64,000 nucleotides of DNA from Minisyncoccota bacterium. Lineage in GTDB: Bacteria > Patescibacteriota > Minisyncoccia > Phycocordibacterales > SBAW01. Shown piece after piece: positions 23,304 to 59,912 of this stretch (the first letter of the stretch is position 1; the number at the start of each line of letters is the position of its first letter). The DNA is taken from positions 257,056-321,055 of the forward strand of contig DASZWN010000002.1 in assembly GCA_035546575.1 (NCBI GenBank). Reading direction: 5' to 3'. Under the pieces are notes generated by a model, which was not told where the DNA came from, searched no databases, and saw only the letters and a list, made by a program, of their open reading frames with translations. The translations under genes and the position numbers were made by a program.

Positions 23304-24794
23304 TTAGTAGCCTCCATATTTGTCTACACACGCTTGAGATTGAGTATTGTCAGAATTCTGCACCCAAGGTTTATATCCGTCTTGTTGAACAAGGTATGCG
23401 GTTGTTTGAGCATTGCATAGATAGTTGTTAGCGGCTTCGAAACACGGTTGGCAGGCTGCAGTTTTAACTGCAACTCCATTTGCTCCTTTACACATTGCAG
23501 GACAGTTAAGTTCTCCTGTGGGGCTACAAGCAGATCCTACCAGCTTGTTTACTGTAATCATTACTTGCTGCGTGCCACAGGCATTACCATTACAACCAGT
23601 TGATCTGCCGCTATTCTCGGTCATAGCAATGCAAGACATCACATTAGCTTGCGCTGAGGTCAAACCTGCACTCATATAGGTATCTACACTGCAGTTAAGG
23701 TTAGTACATTGAGTCCCCGACCCTCCTTTGCTAGTCCTCCTAATCATAACCGGCTGCGCTATAACACTACCTTGAGCATTAACGCAGGCTTCCTGCTTGT
23801 CGTTATACGTACCCTGCTCGCAGGTAGCCACAACTTCTGTTGCAAGGACTGTGAGTTGAGCGCCTGGCGTACCCAGCACCTGTGTAAGAAGATCCCCAAT
23901 ATTTTTTCCTGTCGGCCTATCATCATTGTCTACGCATTCGATTTTATTCCACCCTTGGAAATACTTATCATTTAAGATCCCGTGCAAGATTGTTTCAATA
24001 ATAAGATAAGCGCCTAGAGCTACTACAAATCCTATAATGGCACTACTAAATATCGCTTTTGCATGCTCAATGTTGTGAAGATTGGTTGCAGAGGTGTAGT
24101 ACAACACTCCTGCCCACGCAAAGAGCGCCATCGCAATAGGAATGGAGAGACCAATTGCAAAGTTAATCACATTTTGTATGAGGCTCACTACACTGCAGGC
24201 TTGGCAGTCGGTGCCATTACATGGGATAAGACCACTTATCTGTCCGGAATTTGAGTTAGTAACACTATTACTTGTACCAGTAGTATTGGCTGATGTGTTA
24301 GTAGTATTGTTAGAATTGAGACTCGATCCTAGACTCCCCGCTTGAGGCGATTGCCCAGCAGCCTGAGATGACTGTTGCTGCGTAGAAGTAGGTTGAGGAT
24401 TTGGTACTACGGCTGGAGCGTCGGGACCGCCGATGTGGACTCTACCCTGAAGGTCGATGTAATTAGTTACTAGGAAATTACCGTCAGGATTTTTGATGTC
24501 TTGCCGGGTGCCAAGCTTGGTACCGGACGTATTCTTCCAGTCGGTGTACGTATAGACAAAGTTCGGCTGCGGCGAATCTATGGCAGATATAGCGCCATGC
24601 GTATCAATAAAATTACTAAAATATCTCCCGCTTATTACATCGTGCAAACCCTGTATTGTACCAACACCGTCACGGCCGGAATATGCGGTGTAAAAATAAT
24701 CGTTTGGAGACATCGGGGCAGCAAGAGCCATCAGCGGCAACAGGAGCCCGATACATGACGCAAAAAAGAGCAGGACACGGCGTCTAAAAGCCAT
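23304..24794 (-). CDS. secreted Cys-rich protein with an embedded VirB2/TrbC-like two-helix pilin-like domain
   Basis: signal peptide; S/T/N-rich linker; IQNVINFAIGLSIPIAMALFAWAGVLYY...AIFSSAIIGFVVALGAYLIIETIL matches the two-helix paralogs at 36007-37500; C-terminus has more than 20 Cys. Confidence 0.5.
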   Translation of the reverse strand: MAFRRRVLLFFASCIGLLLPLMALAAPMSPNDYFYTAYSGRDGVGTIQGLHDVISGRYFSNFIDTHGAISAIDSPQPNFVYTYTDWKNTSGTKLGTRQDIKNPDGNFLVTNYIDLQGRVHIGGPDAPAVVPNPQPTSTQQQSSQAAGQSPQAGSLGSSLNSNNTTNTSANTTGTSNSVTNSNSGQISGLIPCNGTDCQACSVVSLIQNVINFAIGLSIPIAMALFAWAGVLYYTSATNLHNIEHAKAIFSSAIIGFVVALGAYLIIETILHGILNDKYFQGWNKIECVDNDDRPTGKNIGDLLTQVLGTPGAQLTVLATEVVATCEQGTYNDKQEACVNAQGSVIAQPVMIRRTSKGGSGTQCTNLNCSVDTYMSAGLTSAQANVMSCIAMTENSGRSTGCNGNACGTQQVMITVNKLVGSACSPTGELNCPAMCKGANGVAVKTAACQPCFEAANNYLCNAQTTAYLVQQDGYKPWVQNSDNTQSQACVDKYGGY

Positions 24795-33321: not shown

Positions 33322-33639
33322 ATGGCATCGATACATCACGAGAGAATGCAAGAAGCGCTGCGCGAAATTTCGGCAGAGTTTCTCGCGCGCGAGGCAAACC
33401 GCAACACGCTTGTTACCGTTACCCGCACGATGTTGAGCGAGGACGGCAAGCGCGCAAGCATCTACATCACCGTCCTACCCGACACTGCCGAGGTTGAGGC
33501 CCTCGCGTTTGCCAACCGCAACCGCACCGAATTGCGCGACTTTTTTAAAACCCGCGTGCGCGGCGCATTGCCGCCGGACATCACCTTTGAGATAGACATG
33601 GGCGAGAAAAATCGCCTGCGCCTCGACGAACTCTCTTAA
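33322..33639 (+). CDS. rbfA: ribosome-binding factor A
   Basis: RbfA KH-like core (LVTVTRTMLSEDGKRASIYITV); follows infB. Confidence 0.75.
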   Translation: MASIHHERMQEALREISAEFLAREANRNTLVTVTRTMLSEDGKRASIYITVLPDTAEVEALAFANRNRTELRDFFKTRVRGALPPDITFEIDMGEKNRLRLDELS

Positions 33640-33643
33640 TCGG

Positions 33644-33715
33644 AGGCCACGGCGGGAATCGCACCCGCGTATACAGGATTTGCAGTCCCGTGCCTTACTA
33701 CTTGGCTACGTGGCC
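33644..33715 (-). tRNA. tRNA-Cys(GCA)
   Basis: GGCCACG...CGTGGCC acceptor; anticodon loop CTGCAAA. Confidence 0.7.
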
Positions 33716-33759
33716 GATGGGTTGTACTCTAGCATATTTTCCGCGTAAGATTAGTGCAC

Positions 33760-33847
33760 GCCGGGGTGATGGAATTGGTAGACATACAGGACTTAAAATC
33801 CTGAGAGGCCTTAACTCCTCGTGTGGGTTCGATTCCCACCCCCGGCA
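33760..33847 (+). tRNA. tRNA-Leu(TAA)
   Basis: anticodon loop CTTAAAA, long variable arm. Confidence 0.8.
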
Positions 33848-33923
33848 CAAACTCCCGACAGTATAGAAAAATAGAAGATCTGTGCTATTATTTTTCGGAA
33901 CGCGCGATTGGCGCGTGATACAT

Positions 33924-33996
33924 GCGCCCATAGCTCAGTTGGTAGAGCAGCTCCCTCTTAAGGAGACGGTCCAAGGTTCGAATCCTTGTGGGCGCA
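33924..33996 (+). tRNA. tRNA-Lys(CTT)
   Basis: GCGCCCATAGCTCAGTTGGTAGAGC...anticodon loop CTCTTAA. Confidence 0.8.
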
Positions 33997-34005
33997 CAAA
34001 ACGCC

Positions 34006-34034
34006 AAAAATCTGCCCTGCGGCAGATTTTTTGG
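34006..34034 (+). terminator. rho-independent terminator after tRNA-Lys
   Basis: AAAAATCTGCCCTGCGGCAGATTTTTTGG. Confidence 0.75.
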
Positions 34035-34168
34035 TTTTGTGCGAGGCGCAGCCTTATCCCGCATTGGCGGGATGGCGAGCCGGGGTCGCGAGCGAATTCT
34101 GCGACGGCAGAATTCGACTTGTGACCACTCGTGCGAGGAGGTTCATTTCAGAGTAGAATGCGGTAATT

Positions 34169-34250
34169 GCTGGGGTGGCGGAATTGGTATACGCACGTGC
34201 CTTAGGAGCACGCGGGGCAACCCATGGAGGTTCAAGTCCTCTCCCCAGCA
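34169..34250 (+). tRNA. tRNA-Leu(TAG)
   Basis: anticodon loop CTTAGGA, long variable arm. Confidence 0.8.
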
Positions 34251-34328
34251 CAAGCAGCACAACCGGCTTTTTGGGCGGTTTTGTGCTTAGAGGCGTTTTT
34301 TGAGCCTTATGTTACAAGGCTTTTTTAC

Positions 34329-34358
34329 TTGACAAAATGGTATGTATTGTGATATAAT
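34329..34358 (+). promoter_or_regulatory. near-perfect sigma70-type promoter (TTGACA, 18 nt spacer, TGaTATAAT) followed by a strong SD AAGGAGG before the ATG at 34431
   Basis: sequence TTGACAAAATGGTATGTATTGTGATATAAT read directly from the window. Confidence 0.6.
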
Positions 34359-34430
34359 ATTGGGTAGAGCGTAAGGCCGTAAAAAGCCCCGCGCGCTCAT
34401 CGACAATTACATAGCAAAAAGGAGGGCGAA

Positions 34431-35477
34431 ATGCCCGATACAACGGCACCAGCGCCTGATCCCTCAAAAGAGGGATACTTTCTCGATTTACCCAGTCCGC
34501 GCGATAGCACGGTTGAGCGCGATCGAGCATCTCGTGCGCTCGACTTCGCGATCTCAACCATTGTGCTGTGGGGCGGACCGATCGTTCTCCTCCTCTGGTG
34601 GTCAATGTTGGTGTCTCCCTCACTCGCACCCTTCGCGATCCTGATCGGATTCGTGATCGGCGCATTCCTGGAATATCTGGGGACGCAGAAGCTGATCATC
34701 TACAACGAGGAATGGACGGCCTATGCGACAAACGACCCGTTTAGCGGGGACAACGTCGCATACGGACCGGGAGCCCATCTGTCCCACTTCTGGGAACAGC
34801 GCAACAAGAGCGGTATCTATTCGCTCGAGCGCATAACCAGGGTGTTTACCGTCGATGTGGCGACGACGACCAGCAAGGTCACGGCAACCGTTACCTACCA
34901 ATACGCCGTGTACTTGCCTTGGTTGCTCAACTTCATCGGCAACGACATATCGACAATCGAGAGCGGCTTCATCGGCTTTCTCCAAAGCTTCCTCACGGAA
35001 AAACTCGCCGGAGATACCGCCGAAAGTGCGCGGAAGAAAATCCGCGAACTGAACACCTTACTTGCGCAGGAGTTCATGCAGGTTAAAAACCTCGCAGGAA
35101 CGAGTGCGCGGGAATTCGAGGAAAAGAACGGGATTCTTAGTGTGAGCATCCTGATTACCGGGCTCGCATTGCCGGAAGCCGTTCAGAAAACTCGCGACGC
35201 CGTCGAGGAAGCGCGAGTCCTGATGGAAGTTGCCGCTCGGATGATGGGCAAGGATCCTGAAAAATTCATGCAGCAAGTGCTTGATGGAACGATCCCGTGG
35301 TCGCAGTACGAGAAGATCCTCAACCGCGCCATGGCTGTCTCCGAGAACGCACAGCTGGAGCTGTTTGCGGTCGAAGGAGATATCGGCAATCTTGGAGCCG
35401 CTGCTCTTGCTCGCTTTGCCAAGCATGGTCTTGGCGGCGGCGAAGAAGGCGGCAAGAAAAAAGGTAAAGGAAAGTGA
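34431..35477 (+). CDS. membrane protein (2 TM), possibly SPFH/band-7-like
   Basis: two TM helices, then a roughly 250 aa domain, then a Gly/Lys-rich tail; family assignment is weak. Confidence 0.45.
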   Translation: MPDTTAPAPDPSKEGYFLDLPSPRDSTVERDRASRALDFAISTIVLWGGPIVLLLWWSMLVSPSLAPFAILIGFVIGAFLEYLGTQKLIIYNEEWTAYATNDPFSGDNVAYGPGAHLSHFWEQRNKSGIYSLERITRVFTVDVATTTSKVTATVTYQYAVYLPWLLNFIGNDISTIESGFIGFLQSFLTEKLAGDTAESARKKIRELNTLLAQEFMQVKNLAGTSAREFEEKNGILSVSILITGLALPEAVQKTRDAVEEARVLMEVAARMMGKDPEKFMQQVLDGTIPWSQYEKILNRAMAVSENAQLELFAVEGDIGNLGAAALARFAKHGLGGGEEGGKKKGKGK

Positions 35478-35947
35478 ACCTTCAGGAAGCAAAGACCAAG
35501 GCTGAAGCAACCGGCACCGCGGGCGTGAAGAAGTTCCGGATATTCATCCGGAACGGCATCATTGCCATTTCGGTAATCATCGTGTTGGTGGTGAGTCCGT
35601 TCTTCTTCATCCATCGCCAGGATACGGTAACCGCAACCACGGCACCGGCCCCAGTGGCCGTCGCTCCGATCATACCCTGTCTCGAGCGTGTCTGTTCGGT
35701 GACGTTGACACCCAACCAATCCAAACAGATAAACCCGGACGGGTACTACGTCTACCCGAGGGTCGACTATGGAAGCGTCGAACTCTCCGGACCTGGAGGC
35801 AGCATGTCTCTCGGTCCGGACGGTGCCGACTTCCAGCCCTACCTGGTGACGACGGTTCAGGCAGATGGCGGTGGCGCGAGCATGCGCTACATTCTCTGCC
35901 CTGGACCCAAGACAAAGGAAGGCATGTCCCGGTGGGACTGTTCCTAA
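35474..35947 (+). CDS. membrane-anchored hypothetical protein (GTG start, overlaps the upstream stop)
   Basis: N-terminal TM; translationally coupled to the upstream gene. Confidence 0.4.
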   Translation: MNLQEAKTKAEATGTAGVKKFRIFIRNGIIAISVIIVLVVSPFFFIHRQDTVTATTAPAPVAVAPIIPCLERVCSVTLTPNQSKQINPDGYYVYPRVDYGSVELSGPGGSMSLGPDGADFQPYLVTTVQADGGGASMRYILCPGPKTKEGMSRWDCS

Positions 35948-35957
35948 ACACGAAAAC

Positions 35958-35988
35958 ACGGCGCGCATCCCACAAGGGTGCGCGCCGT
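35958..35988. terminator. bidirectional hairpin terminator
   Basis: ACGGCGCGCA-loop-TGCGCGCCGT. Confidence 0.65.
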
Positions 35989-36006
35989 ATTGCTTTGTAT
36001 ATATGG

Positions 36007-36288
36007 TTAGTGAGGCAGGGGCGCGTTGATCGTGTTCGCTACAATTTTGAGTATGGTATATGCGGCAACCATGATAAACATGCCGATTATCCCCCAGAGC
36101 ATATGTTGCTTCCCTTTTGATTTATCCGCTTCGCCTCCCTGCATGCCCCACATAAACTCGACAATGCCGTACACGAACACGAGCAGCCCTGCAGCAAAAA
36201 TAAGTGCAATGATCGGGTTGATCACTACGTTGGTAAGGCAATTAGCGATAGCCTCGGCGCTATCAAGACATCTGGTTGATGCACCCAT
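36007..36288 (-). CDS. VirB2/TrbC-like two-helix pilin-like membrane protein (paralog 1)
   Basis: hydrophobic helix, then a GG[E/D]-K loop, then a second hydrophobic helix; paralogous to the next three genes. Confidence 0.5.
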   Translation of the reverse strand: MGASTRCLDSAEAIANCLTNVVINPIIALIFAAGLLVFVYGIVEFMWGMQGGEADKSKGKQHMLWGIIGMFIMVAAYTILKIVANTINAPLPH

Positions 36289-36296
36289 GGGAGTTA

Positions 36297-36590
36297 TTAC
36301 TGGTTATTGTACTGCGGGACAGTCGGAGCCGGGAGTGCACCGCCGCCGCTGATGCCGAGCGTATTTTGCGCCAAACGAATGATGCCCCAAACCGATACCA
36401 TCACAAAGAGCGCTACGAGACCGGCTATCATAATATTGCGACCCTGCGTGTGGTCCTCGCCGCCGCTGATGACATATTTGACCAAGCCCCAGAAAAAAGC
36501 GACGAGCGCGAGTGCAATAAAGAGCGGTATAAGCGAGTTGAGGATCCCGCCTGCAAAAGTGATAAGACTTTGAAGATTATTACCTGGCAT
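36297..36590 (-). CDS. VirB2/TrbC-like two-helix pilin-like membrane protein (paralog 2)
   Basis: same architecture; the ...WGIIRLAQNTL motif is shared. Confidence 0.5.
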   Translation of the reverse strand: MPGNNLQSLITFAGGILNSLIPLFIALALVAFFWGLVKYVISGGEDHTQGRNIMIAGLVALFVMVSVWGIIRLAQNTLGISGGGALPAPTVPQYNNQ

Positions 36591-36661
36591 AAAAGTGGTT
36601 TACGAGTATGAGTTAACTCTAGCAAGAGCGTTGCACACTACAAGGAGTGCGTGTGGATAGC

Positions 36662-36997
36662 CTACTTGGCGTTGGGAGGAATAATATTAATAGGATTCCC
36701 TGTTGCTTGAGGCTCATTACTACCACCGCCTGTGCCTAGGAAGGTGTTGGTTAGTATTTTGAGTATCCCCCAGATAGAAAAGAGTACGAACAGAGCGATA
36801 AGTCCCCACAAAAGCGCCTCACGCTCAGGACCTTTGCCACCGCTCTCTTCTGCTCTTGTGACATAGCGCACACCGGAGTACATAAAGATAACCACAGCGA
36901 GCACGGTGAGCACCGGTATCGCAAGATTAATAATGCCTATCAAAAACAGGACAACATCTTTAATCGATGATGCATTGGAGAGCATAGTTAGCCGCAA
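36662..36997 (-). CDS. VirB2/TrbC-like two-helix pilin-like membrane protein (paralog 3)
   Basis: same architecture; ...WGILKILTNTF. Confidence 0.5.
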   Translation of the reverse strand: MRLTMLSNASSIKDVVLFLIGIINLAIPVLTVLAVVIFMYSGVRYVTRAEESGGKGPEREALLWGLIALFVLFSIWGILKILTNTFLGTGGGSNEPQATGNPINIIPPNAK

Positions 36998-37500
36998 GAG
37001 CTGATGCCAGTAACGCCCAATTGCTGGAGCGTGTTCATGATCACAGCGGCAATGAGCGAAGCGCCGACAAATATCCCGATACCGATAATGACGTTCAAGA
37101 AGTTGCTTCTCGCTTCGGTCAGCTCGCCGGGGTTGCCTTGCGCAAGCACGAACTTAAACCCAGCCCAGACAATAAAGAGTATGGCTACTGGAATACCGAT
37201 TACCATCACCGCCTTGAGCAGGCCGGTTACCAACCCGCAAACCGTTTTAAATTTTAGCGGGTTGCAGAGCGTGCCCGGCTGGCAGTCTGAAGGATTAACT
37301 GTATTCCCGGTAAAGCCTGCGTTTGGTCCACTACCGAGACCAGCATTAGGCCCACTTCCAGTACCTGCATTAGGACCTGAACCGAAACCAGCATTTGGCC
37401 CGTCAGTTGCGCCCTGCACGAACATGAGCGGCAAAAGAAAAACCACAATCGTAAAAAAGATACTTATTGATTGTCTGTATTTAAAAAGAAATATGCTCAT
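36988..37500 (-). CDS. VirB2/TrbC-like pilin-like protein (paralog 4) with a signal peptide, four SGPNAGxG repeats and a Cys pair
   Basis: signal peptide; tandem 24 bp repeats at about 37290-37400; C-terminal two-helix domain. Confidence 0.5.
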   Translation of the reverse strand: MSIFLFKYRQSISIFFTIVVFLLPLMFVQGATDGPNAGFGSGPNAGTGSGPNAGLGSGPNAGFTGNTVNPSDCQPGTLCNPLKFKTVCGLVTGLLKAVMVIGIPVAILFIVWAGFKFVLAQGNPGELTEARSNFLNVIIGIGIFVGASLIAAVIMNTLQQLGVTGISSCG

Positions 37501-38795
37501 CGTCGTGGCAAAAGTTGCTGCAAAGCCTGCGCGCCTTCCGAAACCGCGGTGGCCGGAGTCGACTTGCCACTCACCACAGATTCTATCATGCTCTGAAATA
37601 CGCTATCACTCTGGAGCGGGTTCGGGTCGAGCCAGCCGCGCGCAATAAGTGCCGACTGCACAAACACGCTCGCTGCAGCCGAGCCCGCGGTGTCAACAGC
37701 CACGTCGCGGCGCACCGGCGGCAAGCTGAGTGCCCCCGAGATAAGTCCGATCGAATTCTGCGCGCTAAACTTTTCGGCAACCGCCAGCGCGCCTTGGATA
37801 TTGCGGGCACTGCGCGGGATAGCAAAACCGGTGATGTGCGCTGTAGTTACCTGCGAAGTGTTTCCGTCGATCTGCGGCACCGACGCAACCGAAAAGCGGA
37901 GGTTAGGATTGCGCTGAGCGATGGCAGTATACTCACTCGCCAAGCCAAAGTAGACACCTACATCACCCGCCACAAATGCATCTTGCGCAGACGGCAGCGA
38001 GCGATTCCACGAGTAGCTCGTCTTACTTGGGTTTGCAAACTCGGTATAAAAGCGCAGCGCCGACTCTGCCGGGTTAGAAGTCGCACCTTCGGCATTGCTG
38101 CCAAACACCACCACAGGAGCGCCCGAGGAGTTACGCATGATTATGTTGTCGCCCACTTGCATAAAGAGCGCCGAAAGGATCTCTTTAGCGTTTGGGATAT
38201 TGCGCCACTCACCAAGCGCAACCGCGCTCTTTTTAACCGTGGAGCGGGAATCGAGCGAGGTTATCTTTGGTGCGATAGTCAAAAAATCGTTCCAATGTGC
38301 CGGAGGTGCCGCGATGCCTGCGGAGGCAAAGAGGTCGCGGTTCCAGTACATCACAAGCGGATCAATCGTAAACGGCAGCGCCAACTCCCCTTGCGGCGTC
38401 AAAAATATATCCGACGCGTCGACATACGAGGCGTTGTAGCTCCCCTGAGAGAGCGCACTGTATGGAATGGTAAGTATCTTGTCGGAAAACGAGAGCAGGT
38501 CGTCGCCCGAGAGCAAAAAGAGGTCGGGCCCACTGCCTGCGGCCATCGCGTTAACGAGCGTTTCGTTGTAGGAGCCCGCGTTTTTTTGCACGTAGGTCAC
38601 ACTGTCGAGCGATTTGTCGGTCGAGTGGAGCGTGTCGATAAGCCCCTGCATCGTTTGCGAGTCGAGCGTACCCCAGATGGTCACCTGGCCGATAGTTTTG
38701 CCGCCAAGCACGCCGCCAAACAGCGCAAAGACGCCGATGCCTACCATGATGAGCGAAGCAAATATGCCGAGAACGATTATCTGAAACGTGGACAT
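37497..38795 (-). CDS. membrane-anchored extracellular solute-binding protein (SBP family 1-like), orphan
   Basis: N-terminal anchor; ...LVMYWNRDLF and HWNDF hallmarks of SBP_bac_1; no adjacent permease or ATPase. Confidence 0.5.
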   Translation of the reverse strand: MSTFQIIVLGIFASLIMVGIGVFALFGGVLGGKTIGQVTIWGTLDSQTMQGLIDTLHSTDKSLDSVTYVQKNAGSYNETLVNAMAAGSGPDLFLLSGDDLLSFSDKILTIPYSALSQGSYNASYVDASDIFLTPQGELALPFTIDPLVMYWNRDLFASAGIAAPPAHWNDFLTIAPKITSLDSRSTVKKSAVALGEWRNIPNAKEILSALFMQVGDNIIMRNSSGAPVVVFGSNAEGATSNPAESALRFYTEFANPSKTSYSWNRSLPSAQDAFVAGDVGVYFGLASEYTAIAQRNPNLRFSVASVPQIDGNTSQVTTAHITGFAIPRSARNIQGALAVAEKFSAQNSIGLISGALSLPPVRRDVAVDTAGSAAASVFVQSALIARGWLDPNPLQSDSVFQSMIESVVSGKSTPATAVSEGAQALQQLLPRR

Positions 38796-38815
38796 GACTG
38801 TTGTAATAATGCGGC

Positions 38816-39361
38816 CTAGGCCGACTTTTTGCGAACGACAAATCCCCAATGGTATGCGCCTGCGTCTACTTTTGGCCCGATACTAAACCCGTGTTGCTCA
38901 AAAAGTTTCTGCGCCTTTTCTTGCGTAATAATATGGTCTGGGTGCGGCCCGAGGCCGCCAAACGAGCCTGACCAATCTATAACAAGTGCTCGACCGGTAT
39001 TTTTGAGCACACGGCGCATCTCGGCCAAGCATTCGCCGCGATCCTCCAGGCTAAAAAGCACGTTGGTAAGAAGCACGAAGTCGAACGTACCCGCGGGCAG
39101 GCTCGTGCCGCCGGCCTTTTCTATGTCTCCATGGAGCACCTCTACGTTATTGAGGCCCTCGCTGCTTGCTAAATTTTTGATGCGGGGCAGAAGCTCGCGG
39201 TTGATATCGACCGCCCATACCACCCCGCTCTCGCCTACCGCGCGTGCTGCCGCGCGGGTAAAAAAGCCCGCGCCCGCGCCGAAGTCGGCGACTTTAAGAC
39301 CCTCGTGTATGCCGGCGGCCGCAACCGCCTTGCCCGGATGTAAAAAAGCACTTTCCTCCAT
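38816..39361 (-). CDS. class I SAM-dependent methyltransferase
   Basis: VADFGAGAGFF (motif I) ... VIDW. Confidence 0.8.
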   Translation of the reverse strand: MEESAFLHPGKAVAAAGIHEGLKVADFGAGAGFFTRAAARAVGESGVVWAVDINRELLPRIKNLASSEGLNNVEVLHGDIEKAGGTSLPAGTFDFVLLTNVLFSLEDRGECLAEMRRVLKNTGRALVIDWSGSFGGLGPHPDHIITQEKAQKLFEQHGFSIGPKVDAGAYHWGFVVRKKSA

Positions 39362-39514
39362 TACACACTAGTGTATCACCTCCCAAAAAGGAGGCCCTGG
39401 TTTATCCGAGGAGCATCGAGCCCCAATACGCGTAGCCCACCACAACCACAGCCACAAGCGCAACAACAGCGAGTTCGCTGCCATACTCTTTTTTTACTTT
39501 GTTGATGCGGGCTT

Positions 39515-39964
39515 TCATAGCTTTTGTGTTGAGGCGACCTGGAATGTTCCTACAGTGTCATAGTTCAAGTGAAGCTGGTCTGTAGTTACGGTAACTCCAG
39601 TTAATCGAACATGGTCACCGACGTCCGCGTCGGAGGGATAGTTGAATGTTGTGAGCGCGTAATACTGGCCGGAGTCGGTTTTGAGGCCTATTGCACACTC
39701 CATGGTGTGCGGACCGTCGCCTTTGTGCGGGAGGCATGCAATCGTACCGGTTATAGACTCTGCTGTAGGAGACTTTTTGCCGCCGGCGGTCGGATTGCTA
39801 GAGGTTGAAGTGCTTACAGGCGAGGAGGTGGCAGTATCATGCGAAGAGACTTCTTGGTTAGATGCTATAACGGGTGTTTTTGAGTTATCCCACGATGAGT
39901 AGGCCCAAACGCCCACAAGAGCTAAGACTGCCACTAGAAATCCTGCGAAAAATTGTAACTTCAT
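39515..39964 (-). CDS. secreted hypothetical protein
   Basis: signal peptide or N-terminal TM plus an S/T-rich linker. Confidence 0.45.
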   Translation of the reverse strand: MKLQFFAGFLVAVLALVGVWAYSSWDNSKTPVIASNQEVSSHDTATSSPVSTSTSSNPTAGGKKSPTAESITGTIACLPHKGDGPHTMECAIGLKTDSGQYYALTTFNYPSDADVGDHVRLTGVTVTTDQLHLNYDTVGTFQVASTQKL

Positions 39965-40278
39965 GCACCTATAGACGCATGATTCATGAAATTATTACAA
40001 AAAGAGCCCCCTCGGCCAGGTTTTGGGTCGAGGGAGCATAGACAGGAATTGGATGAGACGACTTCCAGAGCATGATGCCGATCACGGCAATGATGACGAA
40101 GATGACCGCTGCCGCAGCAACAATCAGGTCCCGCCTGGTGATGGGCCGCTTCGTACCCTGGTTGATTTCCATAGCCATGGATCTCTCCCTAGTTACTTTC
40201 CTATCCCTAGGGTAATCCCTCCTGACCATGCTGTCTATATAAAGAGAGCCCGCCGGTTCGGAAACCGGCGGGCAAGAC

Positions 40279-59224: not shown

Positions 59225-59254
59225 ACAGCGGGTGCTCACAGCGGCACCCGCTGT
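59225..59254 (+). promoter_or_regulatory. intergenic hairpin between the substrate gene and the sortase gene (possible attenuator)
   Basis: ACAGCGGGTGC-TCACAGCG-GCACCCGCTGT, an 11 bp stem with no T-run. Confidence 0.4.
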
Positions 59255-59270
59255 TCGTCGTATCACAGCT

Positions 59271-59912
59271 ATGAGAGAGAAAGTCCTTATTGCAACGGTA
59301 GGTATTGTGACGCTGGCGGCAGCGGGGGTGTTTGCCTCTACCTTTGCGCATGCAATGTGGTACTCCTCTCCAGACGACATCGAGGTTGCGGCCAGTCCAA
59401 CTGTTTGGGGCGATGCCGCCTCAGCCACCGCAACCTCAACAACCGGTAGCTATGTGCTGCGCGACTCGGGTATGCGTTTGAGGATCCCCGCTATTGCGCT
59501 TGATGCTCGCGTGCAGAGTGTCGGTGTTTCCAAAAGCGGCAATATGGCGGTGCCGACCAATTACACCGACGTGGGCTGGTATCGAGGCGGAACCAAGCCG
59601 GGCGATATCGGTAGCGCTGTGATTAACGGACACGTGGATAATGGATTTGGGTTACCAGCAGTGTTTCGCCATCTGACTGACCTTTCAGTTGGCAGCGATA
59701 TTTTTATAGAAACAGCCGGGGGCAAAGAGCTCCATTTTGTAGTAACCGACATAGAGACATATGCCGCGAGCGATGTGCCGCTCGACGAGCTCTTCAACCG
59801 CAGCGATACAGCAAGGCTTAATCTGATAACCTGTGCCGGAGAATGGCTACCCGACAGGCAGGCCTACGACCACCGCACAGTCGTATATAGCGAGCTCATG
59901 AATGACAACTGA
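59271..59912 (+). CDS. sortase (transpeptidase)
   Basis: N-terminal TM, His in VINGHVD, catalytic LITCAG (TLxTC) motif, conserved Arg downstream. Confidence 0.8.
   Translation: MREKVLIATVGIVTLAAAGVFASTFAHAMWYSSPDDIEVAASPTVWGDAASATATSTTGSYVLRDSGMRLRIPAIALDARVQSVGVSKSGNMAVPTNYTDVGWYRGGTKPGDIGSAVINGHVDNGFGLPAVFRHLTDLSVGSDIFIETAGGKELHFVVTDIETYAASDVPLDELFNRSDTARLNLITCAGEWLPDRQAYDHRTVVYSELMNDN

Follow-up and report, generated by a model that had tools for sequence, protein, structure and literature searches.

Organization of the operon and its protein families

We analyzed a 64-kb stretch of bacterial DNA, called the window throughout, which carries an operon of six genes on the minus strand (36007-39361). 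The operon encodes a methyltransferase (MTase), a solute-binding protein (SBP) and four small pilin-like proteins, in the order MTase-SBP-pilin4-pilin3-pilin2-pilin1; all six open reading frames (ORFs) are confirmed. The window is a housekeeping stretch of the chromosome with topA, serS, clpB, glmS, infB, rbfA, gyrA, ftsA and ftsZ-type genes. It belongs to a metagenome-assembled genome (MAG) of Candidatus Paceibacterota: in NCBI, proteins with 100% identity to pilin 3 (VHD31_03290) and to the SBP are filed under 'MAG TPA: Candidatus Paceibacterota bacterium'. We consider it somewhat probable that the four small proteins are non-redundant VirB2-like subunits of a surface structure related to type IV secretion systems (T4SS), made together with a glycan-binding SBP, possibly modified by the MTase, and assembled by machinery encoded elsewhere. 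The genes of the operon are:

38816-39361, minus strand: class I S-adenosylmethionine-dependent MTase, 181 residues, first gene of the operon (Pfam Methyltransf_31/11/25)
37497-38795, minus strand: MalE-like SBP, 432 residues (Pfam SBP_bac_1, SBP_bac_8)
36988-37500, minus strand: pilin-like paralog 4, 170 residues (PF18895, 38.6 bits)
36662-36985, minus strand: pilin-like paralog 3, 107 residues (PF18895, 23.7 bits)
36297-36590, minus strand: pilin-like paralog 2, 97 residues (PF18895, 28.0 bits)
36007-36288, minus strand: pilin-like paralog 1, 93 residues, last gene of the operon (PF18895, 28.9 bits)

Pilin 3 most likely starts at the ATG at 36985; the TTG at 36997 is ruled out because it is the 107-residue form that is identical to VHD31_03290. 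Gene callers and all orthologs place the start of the SBP at the ATG at 38795 (432 residues) and not at the TTG at 38849, and MTase and SBP are therefore 20 nucleotides apart, without overlap. The overlapping or abutting junctions of the original prediction are thus found between SBP and pilin 4, where start and stop codon overlap (ATGA), but not between MTase and SBP. The pilin-4 stop is followed after 2 nucleotides by the ATG of pilin 3 and the pilin-2 stop after 8 nucleotides by the ATG of pilin 1; pilins 3 and 2 are separated by a gap of 71 nucleotides.

All four small proteins match the Pfam family PF18895 (T4SS_pilin, curated gathering cut-off 26.6 bits) in a hidden Markov model (HMM) search, in agreement with the VirB2/TrbC-like family proposed in the original prediction. 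The scores of pilins 1, 2, 3 and 4 are 28.9, 28.0, 23.7 and 38.6 bits, respectively (all i-E < 0.001), such that three of the four lie above the cut-off. Of 132 array members collected from the window plus 32 related genomes, 122 match the family as well (best 4e-15), hence the matches are not due to chance. Among the homologs of pilin 3, the domain is present in 12 of 17 clusters. Matches to the TrbC/VirB2 family itself (PF04956, cut-off 27.9 bits) are weaker: pilin 4 of the window scores 20.2 bits (E 7e-4), below the cut-off, and at E <= 0.01 the family is found in 34 of the 132 array members, with the best value (E = 4.6e-8) among pilin-4 orthologs. Pilin 4 is the most TrbC/VirB2-like of the four. 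An hhalign comparison of its ortholog profile with VirB2 of the Ti plasmid aligns both helices (E 7e-4, 59 columns, probability 26%). In NCBIfam, the pilins weakly match a 'pilin-like conjugal transfer protein' of a mycoplasma integrative and conjugative element.

Hydropathy profiles agree with four consecutive small proteins of two hydrophobic segments each, joined by a short charged loop. The AlphaFold model of pilin 3 (predicted local distance difference test score, pLDDT, of 67.6) consists of a helix (residues 5-45), a loop, a second helix (54-85) and a disordered tail. Profile and model together give the two helices with a short basic loop that characterize a VirB2-type pilin. Pilin 3 has no signal peptide and ends in a Gly/Pro-rich tail; its helix 2 (LWGLIALFVLFSIWGIL) is close to invariant among orthologs. 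Pilin 4 has a signal-like hydrophobic N-terminus and four SGPNAGxG octapeptide repeats (in the DNA a 24-nucleotide period with 3.6 copies, 37316-37401), followed by the helix-loop-helix domain. This is as predicted, except that the protein contains four cysteines (73, 79, 88 and 169) rather than a pair. Likewise, the motifs thought to be common to the paralogs are present in some of the copies only: 'GGE' is confined to the loop of pilins 1 and 2 and 'WGI' to pilins 2 and 3, and the residues invariant in all four are I79, N85 and T86 (after helix 2), in addition to the initiator Met.

Two observations concern the ends of these proteins in other genomes. An N-terminal signal peptide is present in most pilin-2 orthologs (beginning MKK) and in a few orthologs of pilin 3, while the copies in the window have none. 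In pilin-4 orthologs from 34 genomes, the C-terminal cysteine (169) is present in at least 80% and the cysteine ahead of helix 1 (88) in at least half. C88 and C169 would both lie outside the membrane, and a disulfide between them would tie the ends of the hairpin together, loosely recalling the head-to-tail cyclisation of VirB2/TrbC.

The SBP and the MTase are, as anticipated, a membrane-anchored family 1 SBP and a class I enzyme encoded in the same operon. The SBP matches SBP_bac_1 (E 4.6e-19, 70 bits) as well as SBP_bac_8, and has a single transmembrane anchor at its N-terminus (residues ~6-24) and then a two-lobe domain that resembles MalE. The AlphaFold model (pLDDT 87.8) accordingly shows a MalE-type two-lobe protein on one membrane helix. 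Its best matches among folds in the PDB are 4r9g, 5ci5, 4qrz and 7bvt (E about 1e-21, template modelling score 0.65-0.74), and the ligands of the nearest solved structures are manno-, malto- and other oligosaccharides. The SBP is conserved to an unusual degree, with orthologs in more than 120 clusters (58-81% full-length identity). Six residues of the anchor region (F4, Q5, G19, F23, G27 and G28) are invariant in 38 sequences; a helix that acts only as a tether would not normally be so conserved, which hints that the anchor has a partner in the membrane. A class III (pilin-type) signal peptide was considered for the SBP and rejected, as the sequence does not fit. The MTase, a cytoplasmic enzyme, matches Methyltransf_31/11/25 (E 1e-17 to 2e-19) and has no membrane segment. 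Its matches in NCBIfam are all sub-threshold and give no informative family; it belongs among the generic class I enzymes and has a conserved motif (SFGGLGPHPDH) specific to the clade.

The SBP has the SBP_bac_1 domain and the two-lobe fold of binding proteins of ABC (ATP binding cassette) importers, but a cognate permease or ATPase is absent at these loci: none is found in the window or in 1.3 Mb of sequence from related loci, nor within 10 kb of the operon in six relatives with Pfam annotation. Such genes might be encoded in another part of the genome. A scan of the window ORFs detects the Walker A pattern GxxGxGK[ST] in DnaX and ClpB only and the ABC signature in none, and hence neither a VirB4/VirD4-type nor an ABC ATPase is encoded in the window, as the original prediction had stated.

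Conservation of the operon in related genomes

The operon layout and the fixed order of its genes are conserved across dozens of species. A scan of GTDB species representatives yielded 251 relatives, of which 80 loci were kept; their SBPs are 39-81% identical to that of the window. Downstream DNA of at least 3.5 kb is available for 62 genomes, and in each of them three to seven PF18895-type genes follow directly after the SBP on the same strand. Wherever upstream DNA is available, the gene immediately ahead of the SBP is the MTase, with one locus as the only exception. The comparison of array copy number suggested earlier gives a stable value, namely four pilin genes in 38 of the 62 genomes. 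In a second, Zambryskibacteria-like subclade the block recurs, here with six to seven pilin genes.

The four pilins have distinct identities. In 33 genomes with a clean four-gene array, a best-hit analysis returns the same order 4,3,2,1, and pilin 1 is last in all relatives examined. Pilin orthologs share 34-45% mean identity, whereas paralogs share 13-25%. Given the fixed order, the higher identity of orthologs than of paralogs and the stable copy number, the four pilins are ancient position-specific orthologs and not the product of a recent expansion, as judged from sequence comparison. The tandem expansion under diversifying selection that had been proposed for them is therefore not borne out. 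Mean ortholog identity is 55% for the MTase and 54% for the SBP.

The spacing of the genes is conserved as well. Median gaps in the 33 genomes are 22 nucleotides between MTase and SBP (up to 286), 1 between SBP and pilin 4, 2 between pilins 4 and 3, 72 between pilins 3 and 2, and 12 between pilins 2 and 1. The stop/start overlap of SBP and pilin 4 is kept in most genomes. On the larger scale, gyrA is found upstream in 36 and rbfA/infB downstream in 34 of 37 loci with full flanks. The distances vary, however, from 2.5 to 9 kb between gyrA and SBP and from 3.4 to 10.5 kb between SBP and rbfA. Genes in between come and go, but the block itself is never interrupted.

Transcription signals and neighbouring genes

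Three elements on the minus strand and one hairpin are relevant for the expression of the operon:

39370-39378, minus strand: probable operon promoter with an extended -10 element (TGaTACACT), 8 nucleotides before the MTase ATG, supported by conservation
36652-36659, minus strand: TATCCACA box just past the pilin-3 stop, matching the core of the DnaA-box consensus TTATCCACA
36616-36643, minus strand: probable internal promoter for pilins 2 and 1 (TTGTAG, 16 nucleotides, TAGAGT), supported by conservation
35958-35988, no strand assigned (detected on the plus strand): GC-rich hairpin of 13 bp (10 G-C pairs), 3' of pilin 1, between the convergent genes of pilin 1 and a 157-residue protein

The TGaTACACT element is preceded by a hairpin (CCTCC-TTTTT-GGGAGG). 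In 33 related genomes, a -10 box of the form TA[CT]A[CA]T is mostly found 6-9 nucleotides ahead of the MTase start, and in many of these directly after the terminator-like hairpin and T-run of the preceding gene. The distance of 8 nucleotides between -10 box and ATG implies a leaderless or near-leaderless transcript, which suggests that the operon begins leaderless at the MTase. At the other end, GTGTTTTCGTGTTT comes after the hairpin at 35958-35988 on the minus strand, and the hairpin is probably a two-way terminator.

The gap between pilins 3 and 2 contains a single conserved box. TATCCACA occurs once in the whole window; 54 of 66 related genomes have ATCCACA in the corresponding position, and elsewhere in the loci it is no more frequent than the background. 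In a locus of the six-pilin subclade (L087), a single copy of ATCCACA again precedes the last two pilin genes. The match to the DnaA-box core is only a lead to DnaA as the putative binder. The TAGAGT of the probable internal promoter is followed by an AT-rich leader of ~25 nucleotides up to the pilin-2 ATG. In the window and in L004, the two loci for which it was counted, the distance from the box to the -10 element is 30 nucleotides, with a TAnAnT -10 and a TTGnnn -35-like hexamer 16 nucleotides upstream of it. A simple sigma-70 scan did not flag the promoter at 36616-36643. If active, it would also allow pilins 2 and 1 to be expressed on their own. We note that the pair CCACA...TGTGG in the gap might form an RNA hairpin. 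This was rejected as the main explanation because ATCCACA persists in genomes without the TGTG arm (e.g. L016, L035, L048). A replication origin in the window was likewise rejected: there is only one box, and the cumulative GC skew falls nearly steadily, with no overall reversal. A search of positions 33500-40200 with Rfam returns four tRNAs only, and nothing within the operon or the 71-nucleotide gap.

Several other genes of the window stand out. Two overlapping plus-strand genes converge on the array (34431-35947), encoding a 348-residue protein with membrane segments and the single-pass 157-residue protein; in several relatives the counterpart of the convergent gene matches Band_7/SPFH, with fast-diverging sequences. 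The four tRNA genes, on both strands, form a cluster (33644-34250) between rbfA and the gene for the 348-residue protein. A fifth PF18895 domain (residues 202-266, 28.0 bits) occurs in a 496-residue protein (23304-24794, minus strand) with a signal-like N-terminus, a low-complexity Ser/Thr/Asn linker and a CNGTDCQAC motif ahead of helix 1. Its C-terminal half is Cys-rich with a weak match to the lysozyme-like domain PF18896 (SLT_3, E 0.19), and the protein may be a fusion of a pilin with a VirB1-like lysozyme. On the plus strand (59232-59912) lies a gene for a sortase-domain protein (PF04203, E 1e-19).

A probable surface structure and its alternatives

Tandem arrays of VirB2-like genes in Patescibacteria have been published (PMC12102498, PMC10633639), hence the array itself is not new. 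Quinonero-Coronel 2025 (PMC12102498) searched 3,035 Patescibacteria genomes with PF18895, PF04956 and related profiles and reports 441 VirB2-like arrays of 2-11 pilin genes in 383 assemblies, with about 25% identity within an array; in roughly 40% of the VirB4-positive assemblies the pilins lie away from virB4. Wang 2023 (PMC10633639) describes six PF18895 genes (SEML1_0014-0019) within the essential T4SS cluster of Southlakia epibionticum. The array of the window falls under the definition used in PMC12102498 (2-11 pilin-HMM-positive genes, in tandem or one gene apart, in Patescibacteria) and is a further member of this class. It shares with the other arrays the PF18895 family, tandem divergent paralogs (about 25% identity), the chromosomal location and its presence in an ultra-small monoderm bacterium. 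The array of S. epibionticum, however, lies inside the T4SS cluster beside a VirB6-like gene and without an SBP, whereas the array described here is unlinked to virB4, has four fixed members and forms one operon with an SBP and a methyltransferase. A literature search found no described link between an SBP and Patescibacteria pilins. The fixed operon link of MTase, SBP and pilins, which about 60 to 80 related species maintain, thus appears to be undescribed.

More distant relatives differ in further respects. VirB2 (Ti plasmid) and TrbC (RP4), both PF04956, are alike in their length (about 70-90 residues), two hydrophobic helices, short basic loop and weak profile matches. Pilin 4 resembles VirB2 also in its signal peptide and in a cysteine just ahead of helix 1. 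In contrast to VirB2/TrbC, the window scores below the Pfam cut-off for PF04956, hhalign gives no match to RP4 TrbC, no VirB3-VirB11 genes adjoin the array, and three of the four pilins lack a signal peptide. The VirB2 paralog families of Anaplasma and Bartonella are also tandem copies (cited in PMC12102498) and are thought to serve antigenic variation or host range; the copies in the window differ in being conserved orthologs with distinct identities.

From the family membership and the association with the SBP, we infer that the operon would serve a surface structure, assembled as follows. The hairpins would enter the cytoplasmic membrane such that both termini lie on the outer side and the basic loop on the inner side; an N-terminus on the outside fits, since orthologs occur both with and without a signal peptide. 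A monoderm-type T4SS (VirB4, VirB6, PrgI, TrsD) might then draw them into a pilus-like or envelope-spanning structure. This system would be encoded elsewhere, near dnaA, as is usual in Paceibacteria (PMC12102498). Four non-redundant subunits imply a mixed structure, made up for example of base, shaft and tip, rather than a set of antigenic variants. The SBP would be produced in step with pilins 4 and 3 and probably reside at or on the structure by means of its conserved anchor helix, where it could bind a glycan from the host and so serve to grip the host cell or to trap whatever the structure delivers. Modification of a subunit by the MTase may occur, and is the weakest step of the scheme.

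The location of the T4SS genes was followed within the available sequence of the source genome, that is, the window and an 8-kb Logan contig beyond one of its ends, as well as in relatives. The Logan contig contains no T4SS genes. According to Table S1 of PMC12102498, VirB4 is encoded elsewhere in the genome for four of six module-bearing genomes. Among the relatives, the only T4SS-type ATPase near the operon is a coupling-protein-like gene in locus L062 (13824-15560, plus strand, 578 residues, TrwB_AAD_bind and TraG-D_C), ~8.8 kb downstream of the SBP start. A side observation concerns six loci (L004, L038, L057, L063, L066 and L073), in which the operon is found ~13-24 kb from the end of contigs of 345-754 kb, a few kb from gyrA. 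Should dnaA mark the start of these contigs, the operon would lie near the origin, as reported for the T4SS itself.

A number of findings weigh against a T4SS-related surface structure. With 23.7 bits, pilin 3 is under the PF18895 cut-off. The pilin-4 profile gives no hhalign match to RP4 TrbC. Structure prediction of a paralog, proposed earlier as a check, yields the hairpin of pilin 3, but Foldseek and profile searches (with pilin-3 and pilin-4 ortholog profiles) against solved structures return no pilin and only chance membrane helices. As the helical hairpin is a generic fold and these searches gave no pilin, it is weak evidence that agrees with a VirB2-type pilin without proving it. Moreover, VirB4, VirB6 and VirD4 are absent from the window, VirB4 and VirB6 are absent within 10 kb of the operon in about 80 relatives (large-ORF clustering and Pfam scans), and two draft Adlerbacteria genomes (500-540 kb) have the operon and no detected VirB4 (Table S1, PMC12102498). 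The whole gyrA...rbfA-infB region is collinear in the clade; part of the conserved neighbourhood could therefore reflect inertia, and is weak evidence when taken alone. Finally, PMC12857230 and PMC10633639 speak of predicted pilins or a potential pilus only, and report no observed PF18895 pilus.

The main rival is a T4SS-independent device centred on the SBP, which we regard as unlikely. The four hairpins would form a hetero-oligomeric membrane stalk or channel that holds the SBP by its anchor helix, and either presents it beyond the wall, similar to the Sulfolobus bindosome, or passes the ligand on in place of an ABC permease. Such a device would suit a fixed set of four different subunits, an SBP that is translationally coupled to pilin 4 and better conserved than the pilins (54% versus 34-45% mean ortholog identity), and the invariant residues in its transmembrane anchor. 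It would also be compatible with the lack of an ABC permease or ATPase noted above, with an operon that never adjoins virB4 in the relatives examined, and with the two relatives without detectable VirB4. There is a precedent in the bindosome (Bas), in which the surface display of sugar-binding proteins depends on co-encoded small pilin-like proteins (PMC3047682). The coupling of an SBP to pilin-like subunits has a working analog in the bindosome, without homology to the proteins of the window: Bas proteins and their SBPs carry class III signal peptides and use a PilB/PilC-type machine, whereas the SBP of the window has a plain anchor, unlike a class III signal peptide, and its pilins are of the T4SS type. 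The relation of the family to VirB2/TrbC, its occurrence inside essential T4SS clusters of other Patescibacteria, and the presence of VirB4 in most of the module-bearing genomes checked (4 of 6) speak for the T4SS-related structure instead. Also, no known transporter is made of such hairpins.

Less plausible again, and next in line, is a mere positional linkage, in which the SBP serves an ABC importer encoded elsewhere, the MTase is a housekeeping enzyme, and adjacency results from chromosomal collinearity. The fold of the SBP is indeed that of an ordinary oligosaccharide binder, the gap between MTase and SBP is larger than the others, and gyrA and rbfA/infB flank nearly all of the fully covered loci (36 and 34 of 37). 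However, flanking genes come and go without ever splitting the block, most genomes keep the stop/start overlap of SBP and pilin 4, and the transcription unit appears to run from the MTase to past pilin 1.

We give little credence to a bolder variant of the T4SS-related structure, a new kind of organ by which an obligate epibiont takes up material or makes contact. Here, a short mixed filament or channel of the four VirB2-like hairpins would carry the glycan-binding SBP, the T4SS would work in reverse, with import fed by the SBP in place of an ABC permease, and a DnaA-bound promoter would link part of the array to the cell cycle. A conjugation-related machine with import rather than export is known from the crenarchaeal Ced system with its small membrane/pilin proteins CedA1/A2 (PMC11868833). 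Ced differs from the operon of the window, since it imports DNA, has the VirB4-like CedB encoded alongside, and lacks an SBP. CedA1 is homologous to VirB2. For individual components of the operon there are other precedents. The chaperone TraQ and the acetylase TraX of the F plasmid exemplify a pilin-modifying enzyme encoded with the pilin, and PrgZ (pCF10) and ChvE (Agrobacterium) are binding proteins that feed signals of the host or partner to a T4SS. All four belong to protein families other than those of the window, and none is known to be co-translated with pilins.

A holin-like lysis module or a fast-changing family of decoys or antigenic variants, suggested by small proteins with two membrane segments, charged loops and low paralog identity (17-31%), is effectively excluded, as there is no match to a holin or any other PHROG family, no lysin, phage or defence context among the neighbouring housekeeping genes, and the copies are stable orthologs in fixed order with a nearly invariant helix 2.

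In the sole Patescibacterium with genetics, the T4SS and the pilin array are essential. A 2025 review that discusses potential pili of the monoderm T4SS speculates on uptake from the host (PMC12857230). If the link between SBP and pilins were only positional, the operon would be one more instance of the published pilin arrays. The fixed composition of four subunits argues, at least in the class Paceibacteria, that the arrays are structural sets rather than variation cassettes. The translational coupling of an import-type SBP to pilin genes, maintained over much of this class, provides a testable handle on the cargo and direction of the T4SS.

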